A stretch of DNA of 42,920 bases, taken from positions 1 to 42,920 of the IMG/VR virus record IMGVR_UViG_2541047955_000001; one strand, 5' to 3'. Positions 2,620 through 18,827 of this stretch are shown piece after piece. This DNA comes from a virus. Taxonomy: Duplodnaviria > Heunggongvirae > Uroviricota > Caudoviricetes. Position 1 is the stretch's first letter, and each line of letters opens with the position of its first letter. Below the pieces are notes generated by a model. The model worked only from the letters and a program-made list of their open reading frames with translations. It did no database searches and was not told the DNA's origin. The translations under genes and the position numbers were made by a program.

Positions 2620-2843
2620 GCTTTAACCTCCTGCACATCAACCGCATTCACCGCGCTATTGTGTCTCACAGACTTAAGCGCCGCAATGCAGTCTGACTTG
2701 CAAATGCGATATGGGCTTTTAGGTTTATCTGGATTTATCTTTGCGGCCTGAAGTCGTCCACTTCGTATCCACTGCGTGATAGTTCCTTTGTCTACCTTCA
2801 GATACGACGCTGCCTCTTCACGAGTGAAGATTTCTTCTTCCAC
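2496..2843 (-). CDS. xis: excisionase
   Basis: 115 aa, immediately upstream of and overlapping int; HTH-like N-terminus; size matches P22 Xis. Confidence 0.7.
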   Translation of the reverse strand: MEEEIFTREEAASYLKVDKGTITQWIRSGRLQAAKINPDKPKSPYRICKSDCIAALKSVRHNSAVNAVDVQEVKACQSNYAVARGTAISSRQMDQELDALLKHRTKGKRKNFTIV

Positions 2844-2932
2844 CTGGAGTCTCCATTTATTGAGTTGGTATTATTGCGGTAGGTCTGGATATCTTGAGAA
2901 ATGAACAGTCCTCATCGAGTGTGAGACTGTGG

Positions 2933-3277
2933 TTAGTCCTTGCGTAGTTCGCTAATTCTTCTGTAAGTCTCTGGTGCTTTGTTTCCGTGTATCTTCATTT
3001 CAGACTTCAACAGAGCAACAAGGGAATTCCATTCGTTGAGGATTCCTTTGAATGCCGGAACGCGCTTTGCAACCTTGTCGAATGAATCTCTGATTTCTGG
3101 AATCTGCTCAACAAGTGCAACGCATCGTCGGAAATCGGCTGCGTCATGTGGAGCGCCGAAGTGATGACCATAGATATTCTTTTTCAGTCCACATGCGATT
3201 GAGGCAAGAGTTGCGCTACTGATGCCGACATCGCCAGTCGATTGCCATTTCAAAACCTTCATAGCCAAATCTGACAT
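2933..3277 (-). CDS. hypothetical early-left protein
   Basis: 114-aa ORF in the leftward operon; no recognised motif. Confidence 0.5.
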   Translation of the reverse strand: MSDLAMKVLKWQSTGDVGISSATLASIACGLKKNIYGHHFGAPHDAADFRRCVALVEQIPEIRDSFDKVAKRVPAFKGILNEWNSLVALLKSEMKIHGNKAPETYRRISELRKD

Positions 3278-3289
3278 TTCTTGTCTCCA

Positions 3290-3316
3290 ATAAAAAAACC
3301 GCCATCAGGCGGCTTG
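3290..3316 (-). terminator. intrinsic terminator (minus strand)
   Basis: Minus-strand hairpin GCCGCC-TGAT-GGCGG followed by T6. Confidence 0.6.
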
Positions 3317-3472
3317 GTGTTCTTTCAGTTCTTCAATTCGAATATTGGTTACGTCTGCATGTGCTATCTGCGCCCATATCATCCAGTGGTCATAGCAGTC
3401 GTTGATGTTCTCTGCTTCGATAACTCTGTTAAATGGCTCTCCATTCCATTCACCTGTGACTCGGAAGTGCAT
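3305..3472 (-). CDS. small hypothetical protein (55 aa)
   Basis: Not in ORF track (<60 aa); MHFRVTGEWNGEPF...; GGAGA-type RBS 5 nt upstream; flanked by terminators. Confidence 0.4.
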   Translation of the reverse strand: MHFRVTGEWNGEPFNRVIEAENINDCYDHWMIWAQIAHADVTNIRIEELKEHQAA

Positions 3473-3545: not shown

Positions 3546-3820
3546 TTCGTTCAAATTGCGTTTACTTCTTGGCGTTCTGCTCATCCATATCGATATACCA
3601 TGGGTTGCTTCCCTTGGGCATGTTTAACGACTGCTCGCGATAGTATCTGATGCGCTCCATGAAATATTCGCGTGAGTGCTCAGGTTGCTATCATGATACC
3701 TGCTCAGTGATAACAGGTATGTTAAGGCGCTCTCTGTACTCCATGCCTGATGCTGCAAGGTCAACGTTTACCTTGTTCTGTTTTTCTTTCGATTTCTCGG
3801 CGATGTTATGCCTGACATTG

Positions 3821-4063
3821 TCAACCCGCCTCCTTCTGAACATAACGGTTATAAATCAGTCCCTGAGGGCCATAAGGAAGCGGGATGTGCAACTCCTCTG
3901 GTTCAGAAACTATCCATTCCCCGGCCATCTCGGCTGGAGAGGTAATGATAAGTTGTTTGCTAATAAAAGGACCACTCCTCTCAACAACAAGCTTACCATC
4001 TTCATTAATAAAAGCTTGGATGTCAGGTGTGCTTCCACACTTGGTGATGCAGCGTTTGAACAT
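3821..4063 (-). CDS. hypothetical protein
   Basis: Track ORF 3821-4105; start placed at internal Met with GGGGGA-type RBS; the overlapping plus-strand ORF looks antisense-like. Confidence 0.4.
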   Translation of the reverse strand: MFKRCITKCGSTPDIQAFINEDGKLVVERSGPFISKQLIITSPAEMAGEWIVSEPEELHIPLPYGPQGLIYNRYVQKEAG

Positions 4064-4189
4064 TTTGTGTCCCCCCATTTTATGTACGGGGTAATTATAA
4101 CACATTGAAATATAGTAATATTTGACGTAGATTTCTTTTGATCTATAAGCGATTTTTTAATGCTTTTAAGTTATAAATACTTGTTTTCA

Positions 4190-4951
4190 TCACCCATCTT
4201 GCTGCGGTGCTACTATTGAAAAGTACTCACACCCTTTAGCCCAAATAGTTTTGATAGTTGTCCAACTGACTGGAACCTTGATTTCGATTCTCCCGCTGCC
4301 GTCACAAGTTTCGCAATCATCATCACCAAAGCATTCCGGGCAGCTTATAAACGTAGTTTCTGAAAATTCACCGGATAGCACACCCTTAGCGCCGTTCTCA
4401 GCGGTTAGTTTCTTCGGCACTATAACCCAACCATCCGGAGTTACCGGAGAGTTGCCATTTATATCGAAGTTTGGCTCTGCGTCCTGAACCAGGAGGATGT
4501 AACCATTCTTGGCAGTATCAAGTTCTAACGCCTCGGTGACGGTGCCGAAATAGCGATTACCTAAATCAGCATCACAAGTGCTTACATCAATGGAAACTTC
4601 CATGCCTTCGATTAATTCTGCCAAGTTGTAAGCTTGGCTTACAGGTTCGGCTTCCAGTTCTGCTATGCGCTTATTTGCTGCTTCCAGCTCATCCAGCAGC
4701 GCCAAGACGGTAGCAGGATTGGCTGCGGCGATGAATTCAGCATTGGCCTGCTGTTCCATTTGGAAATCTTCATCGAAACCGCTTTCAGGATGCGCTCCTT
4801 CAATTCTGCAAATGGGAATATATCCAACAACGTCACGATGAATTAGCGCATCATCACAATCAGATCGGCTCTCTCCATATTCGAGCGACCACACACCACA
4901 CGTTGCTTTCTCTGCCTTTTCACGCAGTGCCTGATAGTCAATCTTGCTCAC
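4190..4951 (-). CDS. Ead/Ea22-like protein
   Basis: 253 aa; central coiled coil LLDELEAANKRIAELEAE typical of Ea22-like proteins; C-terminal CPECFGDDDCETCDGSG Cys motif. Confidence 0.6.
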   Translation of the reverse strand: MSKIDYQALREKAEKATCGVWSLEYGESRSDCDDALIHRDVVGYIPICRIEGAHPESGFDEDFQMEQQANAEFIAAANPATVLALLDELEAANKRIAELEAEPVSQAYNLAELIEGMEVSIDVSTCDADLGNRYFGTVTEALELDTAKNGYILLVQDAEPNFDINGNSPVTPDGWVIVPKKLTAENGAKGVLSGEFSETTFISCPECFGDDDCETCDGSGRIEIKVPVSWTTIKTIWAKGCEYFSIVAPQQDG

Positions 4952-5192
4952 TGGTTGCCTCCTGCTTTTCTGCCTTCAACACCATGCGAGAACCATCATC
5001 CAGCTCCCACGCGATCTCACCACCTTCAGCCATGACCAGTCGCCACACCAATTGAGCAGCCTCATTGGTAACATCACGACCTGGATCATTGCCAACGCGC
5101 ATACGTCCACCTTCAACATCGCGCATTTTTGCCAGCATGATAGTTTTTGATAGCGGTGAAAAACCAAGCTGTAGTCGTGCTGAATTACTCAC
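4938..5192 (-). CDS. hypothetical protein
   Basis: 84-aa track ORF with GTG start overlapping the upstream stop. Confidence 0.4.
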
Positions 5193-5356
5193 TGGTTGCC
5201 TCCTTTACGCCACATCGCATTCAGATATTTGTTTTGATTCACTGATGGAAAAGAATTTCTCTTAAGCAATTCCTCTCTCGATGGCATTGGCTTTACGCGT
5301 TGGCGAATAATCATTTCTGCCGGAAGAATGCCTGGATTGTATGCAAGTCCTCTCAT
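5189..5356 (-). CDS. small hypothetical protein (55 aa)
   Basis: Not in track; [15 protein letters not shown]...; start overlaps the stop of the upstream gene (ATGA). Confidence 0.4.
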
Positions 5357-5643
5357 GATTTACTCTCCACTAACTGGTCAATAGCCATGCTAAGTGACAT
5401 ACCTAAAGTTTCGATATGCTGCTGAATATCCTGTAGCGTCTGCGCCTGAGATAACAGGATTTCACGGTTGCATAACTCTTTAACCAGATGCTCAAACTTG
5501 CTGTAATAACCGATACGGCTTAGTGTTTCTTTCCCTGCATTCTCGCCTTCTTTGATAATTCCTCTTTCGCTAAGAATCAGATCGTGTTTTGTTCCGGTAA
5601 TAACGTATTTTCCGAGGTCGATGTTTAGCTTCATTGTTTTCAT
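5353..5643 (-). CDS. hypothetical protein
   Basis: Track ORF 5353-5796; start placed at [10 protein letters not shown] with GAGGA RBS. Confidence 0.5.
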
Positions 5644-5653
5644 TGTTAATTCC

Positions 5654-5950
5654 TCAGTCATTACTGATAGCGCCATAGCGTGAGCGGTAATTACGCAGGC
5701 GCGGGTCGATATATTCAGGGAAGTGGGTATATGTGGCTTTGCGGAATGGTCGGATTGATGTCTGGTAAATTCGCTCGCGTTCTTCTTTCTCTGCAAGCCA
5801 TATACAGTGGCGAAATTCCTTTTCCTCTTTCGTTTCCTGCGGTAGAGACATTATCCGGTCGTAGTTTTTTCTGAATTTATCCAGCACCTCCGATACGGAA
5901 TTGCCGGAACATCGGCGTGGGTCATCCTCACCATACAGAGGCGCTGGCAT
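5654..5950 (-). CDS. hypothetical protein
   Basis: 98-aa ORF left of the ssb/erf pair, the position occupied by abc genes in P22. Confidence 0.5.
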   Translation of the reverse strand: MPAPLYGEDDPRRCSGNSVSEVLDKFRKNYDRIMSLPQETKEEKEFRHCIWLAEKEERERIYQTSIRPFRKATYTHFPEYIDPRLRNYRSRYGAISND

Positions 5951-5973: not shown

Positions 5974-6357
5974 TCAGAATGGGATGGAATCGTCGTATAC
6001 AGGAGTGTTCTGCTGGTTACTACTTTGCTGCTGCGGGCCATTTCCTGAAGCTGTAAATCCAATCTTTGCATTCAGTAATTCAAGAGTAATTGATTGACCA
6101 TTTTGCCCCTGATAAACATCAACCCTGATGTTTTCTCCGGTAATTTCCACAATGCCACCTTCAACAAGAACGCTACGGTGGTAATCCGCTTGCGCTCCTG
6201 GCTTGGCAAATACAACGGCGCTGTAGTTTGTCCATTCTTTCTTTTTTGTCTGGCGATCGTAATACTGAACGCCAGCACGGATGTTGAATCCGATATTTTC
6301 CCCGGCCTGAAACTCTCTTGCGGGCTTGTTTAGTCTTACAGTAATCGAATGTGCCAT
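5974..6357 (-). CDS. phage single-stranded DNA-binding protein-like
   Basis: 127 aa from internal Met; C-terminal acidic tail ...PVYDDSIPF resembles the SSB DDDIPF tail; start overlaps the erf stop (TAATG). Confidence 0.65.
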   Translation of the reverse strand: MAHSITVRLNKPAREFQAGENIGFNIRAGVQYYDRQTKKKEWTNYSAVVFAKPGAQADYHRSVLVEGGIVEITGENIRVDVYQGQNGQSITLELLNAKIGFTASGNGPQQQSSNQQNTPVYDDSIPF

Positions 6358-6962: not shown

Positions 6963-7511
6963 ATGATTGTTCTCAGAATGGACACGGCCCAAGGAAATAA
7001 CGCTGATTTAATACTTCGACTCGGGACAAGTTAAGGCATACCCGCATTCCTTCGCGGTCGCCATTATGTCGATACCAGAGAGCTTTCTGCGTGTACATGC
7101 GCCTCTGTAACTTGCTCTCCTTCACTGTGGTTGCAAGTGACATGAATATCTCCTTCGTTACCGATTAATTCTTTCATCTGACGAATGAATTCTTCGTCTG
7201 ACCAGTTATCTGTAAAACTCATTTCCTGCGATACCATGGAAGGTTGATAGCTAATTTCATCTCTTTATTTGCTTCAAGCCACATTTTGGAATCACCAATA
7301 AATCTGGCTATTACTGCTTTGTTTTGTGCAGCACGAAGTATCTGGTGATTGATGGCTATTTCATTGCGCATAATAAGACCTCAACTCTTTTCCATCCGTC
7401 ACGTAATTTACGGGTGATTCGTTCAAGTAAAGATTCATTTAGTTGGAAGGCACCCATGCGAGCGCCTCCCGCGATTGCGTAAATCATGGGTGGTTCCTTA
7501 TGTTGGTTTTA

Positions 7512-8480
7512 TTAGTAGGTTATTTTTGTTGCGAATACTTCGCCTTTTACGATGGCTGTTATGATATTTTTAGCAACATCTTCTGATGCACCAACCTTGA
7601 TAAGGTCAGCAAGTATTTTGTTATTTACTTCTTTCCGGTGAGCTTTATCCTTTGCTCTACGCTCTTCTTCTTCCTTGATTCTTTTTTCTTCTGCTATTCT
7701 GGCTTGCTCTTTTGCTTCAGCCTCGCGACGGATTCGTTCAGCCTCCTCCTGTGCTTTTCTGCGTTCTGCTTCAATTGCTGCCTGCTTTTCTCTTTCAGCT
7801 CGTTCTGCTGCCTCTTTTGCTTCGCGCTGTGCTCGTTGCTCGGCTTCAATGCGTTCACGCTCTGCACGTTCCGCTGCGGCCTTAGCTTCTGCTTCTCGCC
7901 TTGCTGCTGCTTCAATTTCGGCTTTTGCCTTTGCTTCGGCTTCAGCTCTGGCTTTCTCTTCAGCTTCTCTTTTTAAGCGTTCTTCATGCTCTCGCTTTTC
8001 CTGCTCCGCTTTGAGTCTTGCCTCTTCTCTTTGGCGGTCAAATTCGCGATCCATCAAAATCGCTATTTCATGGTCAGACTCAATTTGCTTTGCGAGAGCT
8101 TCAGCTGCTGCCTTAGCTTCTTCTTCGGCTTTAATCCGCGCCTGTTCTTCCTCATAATCAGTAAGAGGCTGGCGTGCCTTGGCTTTCAGTTCATCAAGGC
8201 GATCGCGCACTGTCTTGCGGTTGGCATCAATTAGCTTTGGAATTTCCTTCAGTTCAGCAACAAGGTCTTTTCCAAGACCATCGAGATATGTTTTCGTCTG
8301 CGCAACTTTATACGCCAGAGAAGCGATCTCCTTTCTGCCCTTTGCCGTTGTGATATCAGGCACAAAGGACATAACTTCACGTTCAACCTTTTGAAGGATT
8401 TCTTCAATCTGGTCGGCAGACTGAAATACAGTCATTGCATTTGCTTTTTCAATAACAACTAAATCTGTTACTTCACTCAT
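7512..8480 (-). CDS. hypothetical coiled-coil protein with Glu/Arg/Ala/Lys-rich low-complexity region
   Basis: Track ORF 7512-8534; start at MSEVTDL with GGAGGA RBS; ~170-aa tract of AEAKAKAEIEAAARREAEAKAAAERAER-type repeats. Confidence 0.6.
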   Translation of the reverse strand: MSEVTDLVVIEKANAMTVFQSADQIEEILQKVEREVMSFVPDITTAKGRKEIASLAYKVAQTKTYLDGLGKDLVAELKEIPKLIDANRKTVRDRLDELKAKARQPLTDYEEEQARIKAEEEAKAAAEALAKQIESDHEIAILMDREFDRQREEARLKAEQEKREHEERLKREAEEKARAEAEAKAKAEIEAAARREAEAKAAAERAERERIEAEQRAQREAKEAAERAEREKQAAIEAERRKAQEEAERIRREAEAKEQARIAEEKRIKEEEERRAKDKAHRKEVNNKILADLIKVGASEDVAKNIITAIVKGEVFATKITY

Positions 8481-8614
8481 ATATCCTCCATCAAAAAAAT
8501 TGCCCTCACATCGGAGGGCAAAGAAGATTTCCAATAATCAGAACAAGTCGGCTCCTGTTTAGTTAAGAGCGACATTGCTCCGTGTATTCACTCGTTGGAA
8601 TGAATACACAGTGC

Positions 8615-8803
8615 TTATTCGTCATGCATTTCAGGTAATTCTTCGTATTCGACTCCCCATACGTTTTTACACCAACTAACTCGCTCATATCTTTTACAAA
8701 AATCAGACCACATAACTTGTGTTCCATCATGGTTTGTTATTATTTCTGTAATATCACCAACACTAACAAAACTGGTATTAGAAGCAGTTATTTTTACTTT
8801 CAT
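8615..8803 (-). CDS. hypothetical protein
   Basis: 62-aa ORF in the leftward early operon. Confidence 0.4.
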   Translation of the reverse strand: MKVKITASNTSFVSVGDITEIITNHDGTQVMWSDFCKRYERVSWCKNVWGVEYEELPEMHDE

Positions 8804-9123
8804 TACTTATCTCCAAGAGCTTTTCTGATTGCTGCAAGACCTTTATTAACAGCTCCATACCATTCTGGATATGTTGTCGTTGTTCTATTTTTGGTTTGCT
8901 TAAGTAGTAACTGAAGTGCTTCGAGAAGGTCAGGCGCTGCCGCTATTAGATTGGCATCTTCAATGCATTGAACTTCCTCACAGATTGCAATATACGAACG
9001 CCAGCCTGTGCCATTTTCAAGAGAGTCTGCCTGGATGATTTTAATCTCATCGCCATCCATCATTATTTCCCACTTACCTTCAGTACCTTTAAATTCCATG
9101 TTAGCCTCTGTTGTTTGTGCCAA
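8803..9123 (-). CDS. hypothetical protein
   Basis: 106-aa ORF, protein-like composition. Confidence 0.5.
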   Translation of the reverse strand: MAQTTEANMEFKGTEGKWEIMMDGDEIKIIQADSLENGTGWRSYIAICEEVQCIEDANLIAAAPDLLEALQLLLKQTKNRTTTTYPEWYGAVNKGLAAIRKALGDK

Positions 9124-9138
9124 AAATAAAGGCCACCA

Positions 9139-9390
9139 TCAGGCAGCCTTGTTGTAAATGTTGCAGGTATCAAGTAAGTAATTAGATGGAGCGCCATAAA
9201 TTATGAATTCATCGTTTGTCGGGTCCATCTCCATCTCTTGGCCTATTGCCATTCTTGCGTCAGTGTCATCAGAGGCGAAGCATAAAACAGCCCACGCACC
9301 CATTGTTTTAAAAAGAACTGCAATTGGCTGTGGTTTTACTGAATTTGCGTTAGCGCGAAAATCACAAATCGCACTTTCATGAAACTCCAT
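9139..9390 (-). CDS. hypothetical protein
   Basis: 83-aa ORF. Confidence 0.45.
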   Translation of the reverse strand: MEFHESAICDFRANANSVKPQPIAVLFKTMGAWAVLCFASDDTDARMAIGQEMEMDPTNDEFIIYGAPSNYLLDTCNIYNKAA

Positions 9391-9444
9391 ATATCACCTC
9401 AAATAAGTGGTTTGCTGCGAAAGTAAATACGCTTAAGTTACCTG

Positions 9445-9582
9445 TTATTTATCCCACCAAGTTCCGTATCTATCTATCCAGTTACACCAATCATCGACAC
9501 TCCATTTTGTTGTGTCGCATTTTGGCAACTGGCATGAATATCTACCTTCTTTGTAAAGTCGGCGTTTGACTTTCTTGAGCAT
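9445..9582 (-). CDS. small Cys-containing hypothetical protein (45 aa)
   Basis: Not in track; MLKKVKRRLYKEGRYSCQLPKCDTTKWSVDDWCNW...; GAGGTGAG RBS. Confidence 0.35.
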   Translation of the reverse strand: MLKKVKRRLYKEGRYSCQLPKCDTTKWSVDDWCNWIDRYGTWWDK

Positions 9583-9698
9583 GGCTCACCTCAATCGTAA
9601 TAAGTTGGAATTGATTTTCCGCGTTGCTTCTGGCGGCCTGAGCAAGTCACACCCATTTCACTGCGTGGCTTGCGGTAGTAAATTAGATTTGTTCAGAC

Positions 9699-9721
9699 AA
9701 TAAAAAACCCACCGAAGTGGG
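9699..9721 (-). terminator. intrinsic terminator (minus strand)
   Basis: Minus-strand hairpin CCCAC-TTCG-GTGGG followed by T6, directly after the 9722 stop. Confidence 0.55.
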
Positions 9722-10066
9722 CTATGACCATTTTTTATTTGGATTTCGTTGGTGAGCGTGATTAACAACTCTGTGCATTACATCCTCATATTTTTCATCT
9801 TCAATTTTTTCGACATCGCGAGGAAATGGTGTTGCTAATGCTTTGTCAACTTTATCCATTGGGTCTTCATTAATCTTATATTCAGGACCGTCATCTATAG
9901 CATTAAATCCAGGTGTTACACCGTTTTTTAATGCATATGCTATCCTCTTTTCCCATCTCGCTATTCTCCTCCTGTCTCGAGATGTAAGACCTCTATCAGA
10001 TACTTTTCTGTTTTGTCCGCGGTCAGGATTAACATAAATAGTCTTTTTCACCATAAGCATACTCAA
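9722..10066 (-). CDS. hypothetical basic protein
   Basis: 114-aa ORF, highly charged, immediately downstream of the N-like gene. Confidence 0.5.
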   Translation of the reverse strand: MSMLMVKKTIYVNPDRGQNRKVSDRGLTSRDRRRIARWEKRIAYALKNGVTPGFNAIDDGPEYKINEDPMDKVDKALATPFPRDVEKIEDEKYEDVMHRVVNHAHQRNPNKKWS

Positions 10067-10368
10067 TAAGCACCGTACGGTAGTTTACTGTACAATTTTA
10101 TTTTTTGGACTGCATGTATTTTGTTTCCTAATGGGTTTGAATCTTTGTAATAAATACTTCTATTTTTTCGAACGACTTCTTCTTTCTTCTTGCAGCAAAG
10201 GATTCCTAGTGATGCTGCTTTGTCTGCTTTGACGCAACCAGAGAGCTTTAGCGCAATTTTTCGCGCCAGTGCTTCATTACTGCGTCGCTCGGCAATAAGT
10301 TCTGCTCTGCGAGCTTTGTAGCGGCTTTTTGCCGTACCTTTGGATTCTTTCCAGACAATGGTTACCAT
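10063..10368 (-). CDS. N-like transcription antiterminator (P22 gene 24 position)
   Basis: Start at MVTIVW with AAAGGAGA RBS; N-terminal arginine-rich motif GTAKSRYKARRAELIAERR; first gene of the leftward operon next to c2. Confidence 0.55.
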   Translation of the reverse strand: MVTIVWKESKGTAKSRYKARRAELIAERRSNEALARKIALKLSGCVKADKAASLGILCCKKKEEVVRKNRSIYYKDSNPLGNKIHAVQKIKLYSKLPYGAY

Positions 10369-10660
10369 GATGGTCTCCTTTAAGTGGCTTTGGCGCATGA
10401 CGCGTCGAGGTGCTTATCTTCTCGATCGCTGTCTTGCAGCTGCAATTCGCGCCATCCCCAAAACCACTCAAGTTCTGGTCTCAACGGTTAGGTTGAGAGT
10501 CCGTCGATGTTAAAGAGCCTGCCAATCTGTTCCGTTTGGCTTCCAGCGTCCTGCTGATGGCTTAAATTTAAGACTTCTTAATTTATTGGTCAAGTGCATT
10601 TTTGAAGAAAACTTAATTCTATGGGCGTGAATTTAGTTTGTCTTTGATTTTTAACGGGAA

Positions 10661-10682
10661 ATAAAAAAGGGGCGAAAGCCCC
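10661..10682 (-). terminator. intrinsic terminator after c2 (minus strand)
   Basis: Hairpin GGGGC-TTTC-GCCCC followed by T-run on the minus strand, immediately 3' of the c2 stop. Confidence 0.6.
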
Positions 10683-11333
10683 TTAAGGAAGGTTTGCTAG
10701 CTTGGCATCAACGACAACGCCAATGATTTTACAGTTCCCATTGATTTCAATCATTGGGTATTGTGGATTGAGTGGTTTCAGGAATTTTCTACCGGCATCA
10801 ATAACTAACTTTTTGAATGTCGCCTCGTTTTCTCCTTCAAGTTTGGCGACTACCAGCTTTCCATTACGTGGTTCGACTTCTGGGTCGACGAGAATAATCA
10901 TCCCCTCAGGAATACTCAGTCCTGCCGGGGCAGTCATTGAATCGCCTTTAACGTCGAGCCAAAAAGAGTCTTCAGAACAATCTACCGTTGTGTCGTACCA
11001 GTTATCTATTGCACGCCTATGATATGGCTCTACAGCTTCCATCCAACATCCTGCGCTTACCCAACTAATTAGAGGATACGAACCTCTTGGATCATGCCTG
11101 CTGTGATAGGCAATGTTTGAAAGACTATCCTCTCCTTTCAACAGGTAATCAGGGGAGCACTGCAAAGCCTTGGCTAAGGCCAATAGGTTTTCGCCATTGG
11201 GCTCAGTTTCAGATCGCTCCCATTGGGAAATAGCAACATTAGACACGCCAACCATCTTGCCAAGGGCAGCCTGCCTAATCTTGAGTTCTTTTCTGCGAGC
11301 GCGAATACGCTCACCCATCAGTTGTGTATTCAT
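10683..11333 (-). CDS. c2: C2 repressor (CI analogue, LexA/S24-like C-terminus)
   Basis: 216 aa, near-identical to P22 C2 as recalled (MNTQLMGERIRARRK...IIGVVVDAKLANLP). Confidence 0.95.
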   Translation of the reverse strand: MNTQLMGERIRARRKELKIRQAALGKMVGVSNVAISQWERSETEPNGENLLALAKALQCSPDYLLKGEDSLSNIAYHSRHDPRGSYPLISWVSAGCWMEAVEPYHRRAIDNWYDTTVDCSEDSFWLDVKGDSMTAPAGLSIPEGMIILVDPEVEPRNGKLVVAKLEGENEATFKKLVIDAGRKFLKPLNPQYPMIEINGNCKIIGVVVDAKLANLP

Positions 11334-11413
11334 AGTTAAGACATCTTAAATAAACTTGACTTAAGATTCCTTTGGTGGATAATTTAAGTGTTCTTTAATT
11401 TCGGAGCGAGTCT
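11334..11413. promoter_or_regulatory. OR operator region with divergent PRM and PR
   Basis: Between divergent c2 and cro; P22-type operator half-sites (ATTTAAGTGTTCTTTAAT) and TTGACT-16 nt-GATAAT promoter toward cro. Confidence 0.6.
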
Positions 11414-11599
11414 ATGTACAAAAAAGATGTTATTGACCACTTCGGAACCCAGCGTGCTGTTGCTAAAGCACTAGGCATTAGCGATGCAGCAGTCTCTCAG
11501 TGGAAAGAAGTTATCCCAGAGAAAGACGCCTATCGATTGGAAATCGTTACAGCTGGCGCCCTGAAGTATCAAGAAAGTGCTTACCGCCAAGCGGCATAA
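11414..11599 (+). CDS. cro: Cro repressor
   Basis: 61 aa; HTH QRAVAKALGISDAAVSQW; divergent from c2. Confidence 0.9.
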   Translation: MYKKDVIDHFGTQRAVAKALGISDAAVSQWKEVIPEKDAYRLEIVTAGALKYQESAYRQAA

Positions 11600-11714
11600 G
11601 CAAATTGCTCTTTAACAGTTCTGGCCTTTCACCTCTAACCGGGTGAGCAAACATCAGCGGCAAATCCATTGGGTGTGCCGCTATAACTCAATATCAATAT
11701 AGGAAAATTAACAA

Positions 11715-12011
11715 ATGGCACAAGCAAGCTACAGCAAGCCAACCCAGCGAGAAATTGATCGCGCTGAAACTGATTTACTCATCAACCTGTCAACGCTTAC
11801 CCAGCGCGGTCTGGCAAAGATGATTGGCTGTCATGAATCGAAGATAAGCAGAACGGACTGGAGATTTATTGCTTCGGTCTTGTGTGCTTTCGGAATGGCA
11901 TCAGACATCAGTCCGATTAGCAGGGCTTTTAAGTATGCGCTTGATGAAATCACAAAGAAAAAATCCCCGGCCGCCACCGAGGATTTTAAGCAAATTGATA
12001 TGCAATTCTGA
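11715..12011 (+). CDS. CII-like transcriptional activator (P22 c1 position)
   Basis: 98 aa; resembles lambda CII in HTH and C-terminus (KKKSPAATE...QIDMQF). Confidence 0.7.
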   Translation: MAQASYSKPTQREIDRAETDLLINLSTLTQRGLAKMIGCHESKISRTDWRFIASVLCAFGMASDISPISRAFKYALDEITKKKSPAATEDFKQIDMQF

Positions 12012-18261: not shown

Positions 18262-18503
18262 TAACTGAGCCGTAGCCACTGGCTATCCTGAATTCATCAG
18301 TGATAGTTACGCTGCGGCCTTCTACACATGACCTTCGTGAAAGCGGGTGGCAAGAGGCTGCGCTAACAACCTCCTGCCGTTTTGCCCGTGCATATCGGTC
18401 ACGAACAAATCTGATTACTAAACACAGTAGCCTGGATTTGTTCTATCAGTAATCGACCTTATTCCTAATTAAATAGAGCAAATCCCCTTATTGGGGGTAA
18501 GAC

Positions 18504-18827
18504 ATGAAGATGCCAGAAAAACATGACCTGTTAGCCGCCATTCTCGCGGCAAAGGAACAAGGCATCGGGGCAATCCTTGCGTTTGCAATGGCGTACCTTC
18601 GCGGCAGATATAATGGCGGTGCGTTTACAAAAACAGTAATCGACGCAACGATGTGCGCCATTATCGCCTGGTTCATTCGTGATCTTCTCGACCTCGCCGG
18701 ACTAAGTAGCAATCTCGCTTATATAACGAGCGTGTTCATCGGCTACATCGGTACTGACTCGATTGGTTCGCTTATCAAACGCTTCGCTGCTAAAAAAGCC
18801 GGAGTAGAAGATGGTGGAAATCAATAA
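18504..18827 (+). CDS. S: holin, lambda S type with dual-start motif
   Basis: 107 aa [39 protein letters not shown]... near-identical to lambda S as recalled. Confidence 0.95.

Follow-up and report, generated by a model that had tools for sequence, protein, structure and literature searches.

In the lambdoid phages, the early left (pL) operon carries a slot for variable accessory genes between gene N and tL2. In phage P22 this slot holds sieB/esc, ral, orf78, orf87 and gene 17, in Sf6 it holds gene 36, ral and gene 34, and ral is also found there in lambda. The Nun protein of phage HK022 attaches to the boxB hairpin in the nascent nut RNA of lambda, for which it is a competitor of lambda N, and it prevents RNA polymerase from translocating, so that HK022 lysogens exclude lambda (PMC5386594, PMC4124055). 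We describe here the corresponding slot in a viral DNA of 42,920 nucleotides (nt) (IMG/VR record IMGVR_UViG_2541047955_000001, positions 1 to 42,920; "the window" below), which is 100% identical to part of the chromosome of Escherichia coli isolate AHB29 (NZ_OZ547246.1), the source of the RefSeq annotation. Positions 8615-10066 belong to the early left operon of a complete P22-like E. coli prophage, and a first-pass annotation made from the letters alone had seen there five minus-strand open reading frames (ORFs), at 9722-10066, 9445-9582, 9139-9390, 8803-9123 and 8615-8803, of 114, 45, 83, 106 and 62 amino acids (aa), respectively. These ORFs are present exactly as it listed them, and it placed them correctly, directly downstream of N and in the slot that contains ral, sieB and gene 17 in P22. 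Very probably the region is a variable pL accessory slot that runs from N to the boundary element bsq4/tL2A behind an N/nut system of the phage 21 type, and that is filled by a nun transcription unit and four small cassettes with N-dependent expression in early lytic growth.

The first of the five ORFs was misjudged when it was called uncharacterised and grouped with plausible anti-defence candidates; by homology it is HK022 Nun, a transcription-arrest factor of phage exclusion rather than an anti-defence protein. Comparison by phmmer with chain N of PDB entry 6ALG, which is HK022 Nun bound to an E. coli elongation complex, gave an expect value (E) of 2.6e-71 with 108 of 109 residues identical, the sole change being S11R. 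Residues 12-109 are all identical, and these include H93, R94, N97, H98, H100, R102, K106, K107 and W108, which matter for arrest or contact RNA polymerase and nucleic acid (PMC5386594). The arginine-rich, boxB-binding motif (residues 20-44) is identical to the peptide of PDB entry 1HJI (26/26), and the ORF matches phrog_5632, "Nun-like transcription termination factor", with an E of 4.8e-71. The 114-aa frame begins at a TTG, upstream of both the RefSeq start and the start of the solved Nun chain (Table 1).

The similarity to HK022 extends beyond the gene. Window positions 9705-10180, which cover the terminator, nun and the upstream stretch, are 96.8% identical to HK022, and divergence sets in about 118-125 base pairs (bp) upstream of nun. 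HK022 reportedly has constitutive prophage promoters just upstream of nun, and by homology those of the window are predicted to lie inside the 3' end of N. At the other end, the terminator that the first-pass annotation saw at 9699-9721 was borne out as an intrinsic-terminator-like hairpin (9723-9706) with a T-run, and it is the putative end of the nun unit. Its HK022 counterpart differs by compensatory stem changes (CCCAC/GTGGG versus CCCGC/GCGGG between the window and HK022), and these changes support a functional hairpin. The gene nun would then be a promoter-gene-terminator unit and the first in the slot, and we infer that the repressed prophage expresses it and that it serves to exclude lambda-type phages. 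The arginine-rich motif of Nun would sit on lambda-type boxB RNA with the C-terminus wedged into the elongating RNA polymerase, and the transcription of a superinfecting lambda-type phage would thereby be arrested, so that a host carrying the prophage is predicted to resist such phages. We note that HK022 locus positions 6071-6184 correspond to window positions 10067-10184, the last 39 codons of the prophage N gene, and that the N stop codon, TGA in the window, is TGG in HK022. Because HK022 has no N gene but has these last 39 N codons upstream of nun, its upstream segment appears to be what remains of an ancestral N-nun arrangement.

The resident N protein is 78% identical to lambda imm21 N, and residues 1-46, which include the arginine-rich motif, are identical. 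The boxB pattern of nutL is unique within the window, and nutR (11606-11648) consists of TGCTCTTTA followed by TTCACCTCTAACCGGGTGAG; no lambda-type boxB was found anywhere in the window with up to 3 mismatches allowed. Nun is specific for lambda-type nut sites. Since its nut sites are of the phage 21 type only, the resident phage would offer no target to its own Nun and should be immune to it. The arrangement of N plus nun is not new; it was annotated previously in phages mEpX1, mEp235 and PA28, and Nun is named as such in mEpX1 and mEp235. In the RefSeq record both N and Nun are labelled "hypothetical protein" and the 45-aa gene is left out, so the present assignments close an annotation gap for N, Nun and the 45-aa gene in a clinical E. 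coli genome.

The five genes together are, judged from their distribution, a chance combination of independently exchanged cassettes and not a conserved module, since homology breakpoints fall between the genes, the whole block is present in only two genomes and the neighbours of each gene vary. Breakpoints were located by comparison with HK022, mEpX1, mEp234, mEp043 and APC_JM3.2. Phage mEpX1 matches window positions 9387-10560 (the 45-aa gene, nun and N), mEp234 matches 9107-9418 (the 83-aa gene), and mEp043 and APC_JM3.2 match 8799-9134 (the 98-aa gene, which is the 106-aa ORF from its probable start; see below). In HK022 an IS903 element (locus positions 4602-5658 versus window 8604-9704) sits exactly between the nun terminator and bsq4, in the place of the four small genes. 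None of the five phage loci compared matches the 62-aa gene at the nucleotide level, and in the phage collection this gene is matched as protein only, at no more than 80% identity. Among 5426 complete E. coli genomes, the 62-, 98-, 83- and 45-aa genes are carried by 94, 160, 403 and 145, respectively, and at least 80% of window positions 8400-10700 is present in two. In most cases an unrelated 52-aa gene comes after the 98-aa gene, and in strain S10 a 44-aa gene lies before the 62-aa gene. A synteny comparison of the kind that the first-pass annotation suggested thus speaks against a run of genes that travels as a unit, and "tightly packed" holds only moderately, with gaps of 139, 54 and 39 bp and one overlap of 1 nt. 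Apart from nun, the locus is unexceptional for a mosaic slot of this well-described kind, and each of its genes is 95-100% identical to public genome sequences.

The left border of the slot is the boundary sequence bsq4. This segment is 93-97% identical in HK022, mEpX1, mEp234, mEp043 and APC_JM3.2 despite their differing flanking genes, it is present in 327 phage records, lambda included, and the Sf6 annotation names it "bsq4; boundary sequence", together with tL2A. Minus-strand positions 8490-8620 of the window fold into three hairpins with a minimum free energy of -47.4 kcal/mol (z = -6.3), and the exact lambda boxA consensus CGCTCTTAA lies at 8571-8563 within the element; boxA plus a 12-bp hairpin are features of the conserved bsq4 element. 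We considered whether this structured stretch is something unusual and rejected the idea, as it is the already described bsq4/tL2A. An Rfam search of window positions 7000-12000 returned no match.

Table 1. Positions of the slot genes, their control sites and the slot border in the window
Feature	Position	Strand	Remarks
nutL	10480..10517	-	boxA-like GCTCTTTAA + phage-21-type boxB CTCAACCTAACCGTTGAG, read from sequence
N antiterminator, phage-21 type	10063..10368	-	phrog_271, E 7.6e-31; RefSeq coding sequence of 101 aa
Inferred site of constitutive prophage promoters PNun, PNun'	10067..10184	-	about 118 bp in common with HK022
nun	9722..10060	-	112 aa from ATG 10060 (RefSeq start); 109 aa from GTG 10051 (solved chain) in HK022 numbering
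Intrinsic terminator of nun unit	9698..9723	-	terminator scan: 7-bp stem, 4-nt loop, T-run
45-aa basic Trp-rich peptide, DUF5484	9445..9582	-	PF17583, phrog_1871; absent from RefSeq annotation
83-aa acidic protein, phrog_2471 (VT2-Sakai H0090/mEp234 gp34 family)	9139..9390	-	E 2.9e-61
Intrinsic terminator across 83-aa gene stop	9129..9150	-	terminator scan; homologous site in mEp234 annotated as rho-independent terminator
98-aa acidic protein, PF27050 Phage_P22_Y8K6 family	8803..9099	-	phrog_1273, E 3e-32; RefSeq "XkdD/Y8K6 family"
62-aa acidic protein, phrog_10407	8615..8803	-	E 2.6e-46; start overlaps 98-aa gene stop (TAATG)
Boundary sequence bsq4 + tL2A-type terminator (8521-8500), left slot border	8496..8615	-	120 nt

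The four small genes are real genes, conserved as ORFs in distant phages down to 41-70% protein identity. The 45-aa and 83-aa genes are both preceded by the Shine-Dalgarno sequence GAGGTGA and the 62-aa gene by GGAGA. The 106-aa ORF most likely starts at the ATG at 9099, which is also the RefSeq start and gives a 98-aa protein, because its homologues (mostly 89-111 aa) align from that methionine, the ATG is preceded by the Shine-Dalgarno sequence AGAGG, and the TTG of the longer frame lies inside the T-run of the preceding terminator. Terminator-like sites are more frequent in the region than in shuffled sequence (8 observed versus 1.9 expected), a third such site on the minus strand being that at 8521-8500 after the 62-aa gene, and promoter-like sites are about as frequent as in shuffled sequence (6 versus 5.7). 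A simple promoter scan of the coding strand called none upstream of the four small genes except one weak site inside the 83-aa gene. Because the four genes lie behind the nun terminator and promoter-like sites occur at the shuffled frequency, their expression is predicted to depend on N, and they would be produced solely by readthrough of N-modified polymerase from pL in early lytic growth.

Two of the four small proteins belong to families that are common to lambdoid and T-even phages. The 45-aa peptide (isoelectric point, pI, 9.4; five tryptophans) scores 46.7 bits against PF17583, for which the cut-off is 27, over residues 5-42 of 45, and it matches phrog_1871 with an E of 1.4e-22. Its family is present in 589 phage records, mostly T-even-like. 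The homologue in RB69, gp55.4, sits in the 55.1-55.6 cluster of small ORFs beside gene 55, and the annotation of Sf6 gene 36 reads "similar to phage T4 gene Orf55.4". Alignment with the T-even members shows 15 invariant positions, three of them tryptophans. The three cysteines that the first-pass annotation had pointed out are indeed present; they are, however, not conserved in the homologues, C17, C22 and C33 being replaced in the T-even proteins by T/E/I, G and I, respectively, and a metal site or zinc finger was rejected on these grounds. We found no paper that mentions DUF5484, and in five listed genomes of the 145 E. coli carriers the gene lacks an annotated feature. The 62-aa protein (pI 4.8, soluble) has no Pfam or PDB match. 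Its family is present in 64 phage records, with 59-63% identity in RB49-like T-even phages, and the domain corresponds at 55-63% identity to the C-terminus of the 119-aa RB49 protein ORF076c and its relatives (phrog_10407/phrog_16117), as well as to a 58-aa protein of Salmonella phage SP069. The 62-aa gene is similar neither to P22 orf87 nor to the 52-aa partner gene in mEp043, and it was therefore rejected as a counterpart of either.

The 83-aa family is confined to enterobacterial lambdoid phages, Stx phages and mEp234 included. The protein (pI 4.2) is found in 56 phage records, in 54 of them at 95-99% identity, in 16 clusters among 5.8 billion proteins, and as 6 representatives among 1.84 billion in an exhaustive HMMER search; homologues of 70% identity lie directly after an N gene in metagenomic contigs. 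The HMMER match of one of the six representatives, a 3126-aa protein, to the 83-aa query was regarded as a spurious low-complexity artefact, since this protein is built of about 42 near-identical repeats of about 70 residues and is 28% identical. Its summed E against the 83-aa query was 7e-34, and DUF3333 and Imm58 were matched equally repetitively, a case which shows that repeat proteins can inflate HMMER scores. Comparison of the 83-aa profile with the PDB gave chance-level matches only, the best being a beta-propeller segment and a PB1 domain at an E of 0.036-0.054.

The 98-aa protein was assigned to PF27050 through precomputed annotation of homologues that are 88-98% identical to it, our local copy of Pfam being without this model. 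Members of the family, when aligned, open with a constant N-terminus (MEFKGT.G.W), continue with alternative middle segments and then the invariant motif AAPDLLEAL, and close with a variable stretch before the constant AI.KALG end. By BLASTP, P22 orf78 is 39% identical to it over 46 aa of the C-terminal hairpin (E 5e-6). The AlphaFold2 model has a predicted local distance difference test score (pLDDT) of 72 overall and of 85-93 for residues 51-90, with a confident helical hairpin at residues 44-95 preceded by a weak beta-meander. A Foldseek comparison of this model with viral models returned unnamed or uncharacterised proteins only, and a literature search for "XkdD" yielded nothing informative on the family. 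With its constant hairpin and swappable N-terminal module, this modular PF27050 protein could be a diversifying binder. We note that in other phages (APC_JM3.2, locus 3616-4239; another phage, locus 2840-3463) the PF27050 gene has immediately upstream of it, in the same slot, a gene for a 207-aa Nmad5 (nucleotide-modification-associated domain 5) protein, and that Ral is sometimes also present in that slot.

The four small proteins may be dispensable binders of host or rival-phage proteins, because they are small and soluble, many related phages do without them, and two of the families recur in virulent T-even phages. The verdict of the first-pass annotation that no function can be assigned stands for these four, Nun being the gene for which it fails. 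The profile and structure-based searches that it had suggested led to no functional family or fold for them: Pfam, NCBIfam and PADLOC gave none (the sole Pfam match is that of the 45-aa peptide to DUF5484), and sequence and profile searches of the PDB gave chance-level matches only. Its statement that none of the ORFs looks like a membrane SieB also holds, as the highest 19-residue Kyte-Doolittle hydropathy is no more than 1.55 across all products and SieB-type transmembrane segments were not found.

The strongest competing explanation is the one that the first-pass annotation proposed, namely that at least one of the four is an anti-defence factor, an anti-restriction protein or an inhibitor of abortive infection or of another immune system; we regard this as rather unlikely. 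The position of the genes speaks for it, as lambda, P22 and Sf6 all have ral in this slot and Ral also adjoins other slot members, and such accessory regions are enriched for counter-defence genes (10.1101/2023.04.06.535777). So does the character of the products, three of which are small and acidic (pI 4.2-4.8), and the occurrence of two families in both temperate lambdoid and virulent T-even phages fits a host-directed function that is independent of lifestyle. Nevertheless, none of the four matches a PADLOC, Pfam or NCBIfam family of known function or has fold similarity to known inhibitors; Ral (PF11058) was matched by none of the five products in Pfam and PHROGs, and PADLOC-DB gave no match for any of the five at E ≤ 0.1. 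Two relatives have in addition been screened. Silas et al. expressed 200 accessory genes in wild E. coli (ECOR) strains, and orf60 and orf123 are not among the ORFs that they list with a conditional-lethality, cell-death or counter-defence phenotype (10.1101/2023.04.06.535777). By our comparison orf60/UDP0060 of that library is AFM76313.1 of mEp234, which agrees with the 83-aa protein in 82 of 83 residues, and orf123/UDP0123 is a relative that has its C-terminal module in common with the 98-aa protein; neither the 45-aa nor the 62-aa family is represented in the library. The outcome for orf60 makes it less likely that the 83-aa protein has an anti-defence role that is strong and broadly visible. 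If the target is allowed to be a core host process as well as a host defence, a new inhibitor among the four becomes a tentative possibility, and the gp55.4-like 45-aa peptide and the 62-aa domain could be the best candidates, their families being common to temperate lambdoid and virulent T-even phages. As candidates for accessory-gene screens the four genes are reasonable but unremarkable, and they open no new question.

It is considerably less probable that the four small genes are morons of lysogenic conversion which, like nun, are expressed from the prophage and protect the host from other phages. They do adjoin nun, a proven prophage-expressed exclusion gene, and there are terminators after the 83-aa and 62-aa genes, flanking terminators being typical of morons. 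However, the nun terminator lies directly upstream of them, the coding strand has no promoter-like site upstream of them other than the weak one inside the 83-aa gene, the count of such sites is that expected by chance, and strictly virulent T-even phages, for which lysogenic conversion is meaningless, have homologues too. That some of the small ORFs, above all the 45-aa one, are chance ORFs is highly improbable: this ORF is very short and is unannotated both here and in the top-listed E. coli carriers, but it scores above the Pfam gathering threshold, its many phage relatives include T-even homologues of 41-51% identity in which K, G, Y, P, D, T and W positions are invariant, a strong Shine-Dalgarno sequence precedes it, and it is annotated as a gene in both Sf6 and RB69.

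Several points weigh against the reading of the locus as a nun unit followed by N-dependent cassettes for small binding proteins. The simple scan called no consensus promoter upstream of nun, whose putative promoter is placed solely by homology to HK022. That Nun would ignore the boxB of the phage 21 type is taken from its published specificity. The four small genes may have a weak internal promoter, and a binding function and a lytic role of their products are predictions. Among the structural models, that of the 83-aa protein is unusable (pLDDT 54, from a 7-sequence alignment), and the fold matches of the 98-aa protein are generic helical hairpins only.

The prophage adjoins a tRNA-Thr gene and proA, and its capsid, portal, ejection and tailspike genes are of the P22 type. 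The RefSeq order on the minus strand is a LexA-family repressor gene, two "hypothetical" genes, three small genes, a coiled-coil gene, cIII, kil, erf and an anti-RecBCD gene. The coiled-coil gene (7512-8480, minus strand) encodes a 322-aa protein with a long centre rich in Glu, Lys, Ala and Arg; it belongs to the Sf6 gene 33 family (phrog_1376) and is kept between bsq4 and cIII in many lambdoid phages. Also in the early left region is a homologue of the DNA polymerase III theta subunit (AC9VS6_RS11910; 3562-3843, minus strand), which is a frameshifted pseudogene according to RefSeq, and two tRNA genes (Asn and Thr; 18426-18581, plus strand) lie between the late antiterminator and holin genes in the RefSeq annotation.

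Each gene of the slot can be compared with a described relative. The 83-aa protein is 98.8% identical to mEp234 gp34/VT2-Sakai H0090, which has the same place after N and the same overlapping terminator, and there is no difference of substance. The 45-aa peptide aligns end to end with T4/RB69 gp55.4 and with Sf6 gene 36, the latter being in the same slot directly after N, whereas the T-even versions are 41-51% identical and the three cysteines are specific to the lambdoid version. The 62-aa protein and RB49 ORF076c have 18 invariant positions over the whole of the former; ORF076c has an extra N-terminal region of 60 residues without a Pfam match, and the window protein is the bare domain. The 98-aa protein and P22 orf78 have in common the early left slot, a C-terminal hairpin with AAP(D/E)LLEAL and AI.KALG motifs and a 1-nt overlap with the next gene, whereas their N-terminal halves are unrelated, the family being modular with a swappable N-terminal or middle segment; the downstream partner is the 62-aa gene here, the 52-aa gene in mEp043 and APC_JM3.2, and orf87 in P22. 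Nun has the arginine-rich motif and the polymerase-contacting C-terminus of HK022 Nun, with about 118 bp of common sequence upstream and a terminator downstream in both, but in the window nun comes after an intact N gene of the phage 21 type and overlaps its stop codon, whereas HK022 is without N, uses put RNA and has kept only the relic of the N 3' end. As a whole, the slot agrees with the N-to-tL2 region of lambda, Sf6 and P22 in its position, in its bsq4/tL2A left border and in its mosaic behaviour, and it differs in its contents: in place of ral, sieB, ea10 and gene 17, this prophage carries nun and four other cassettes.

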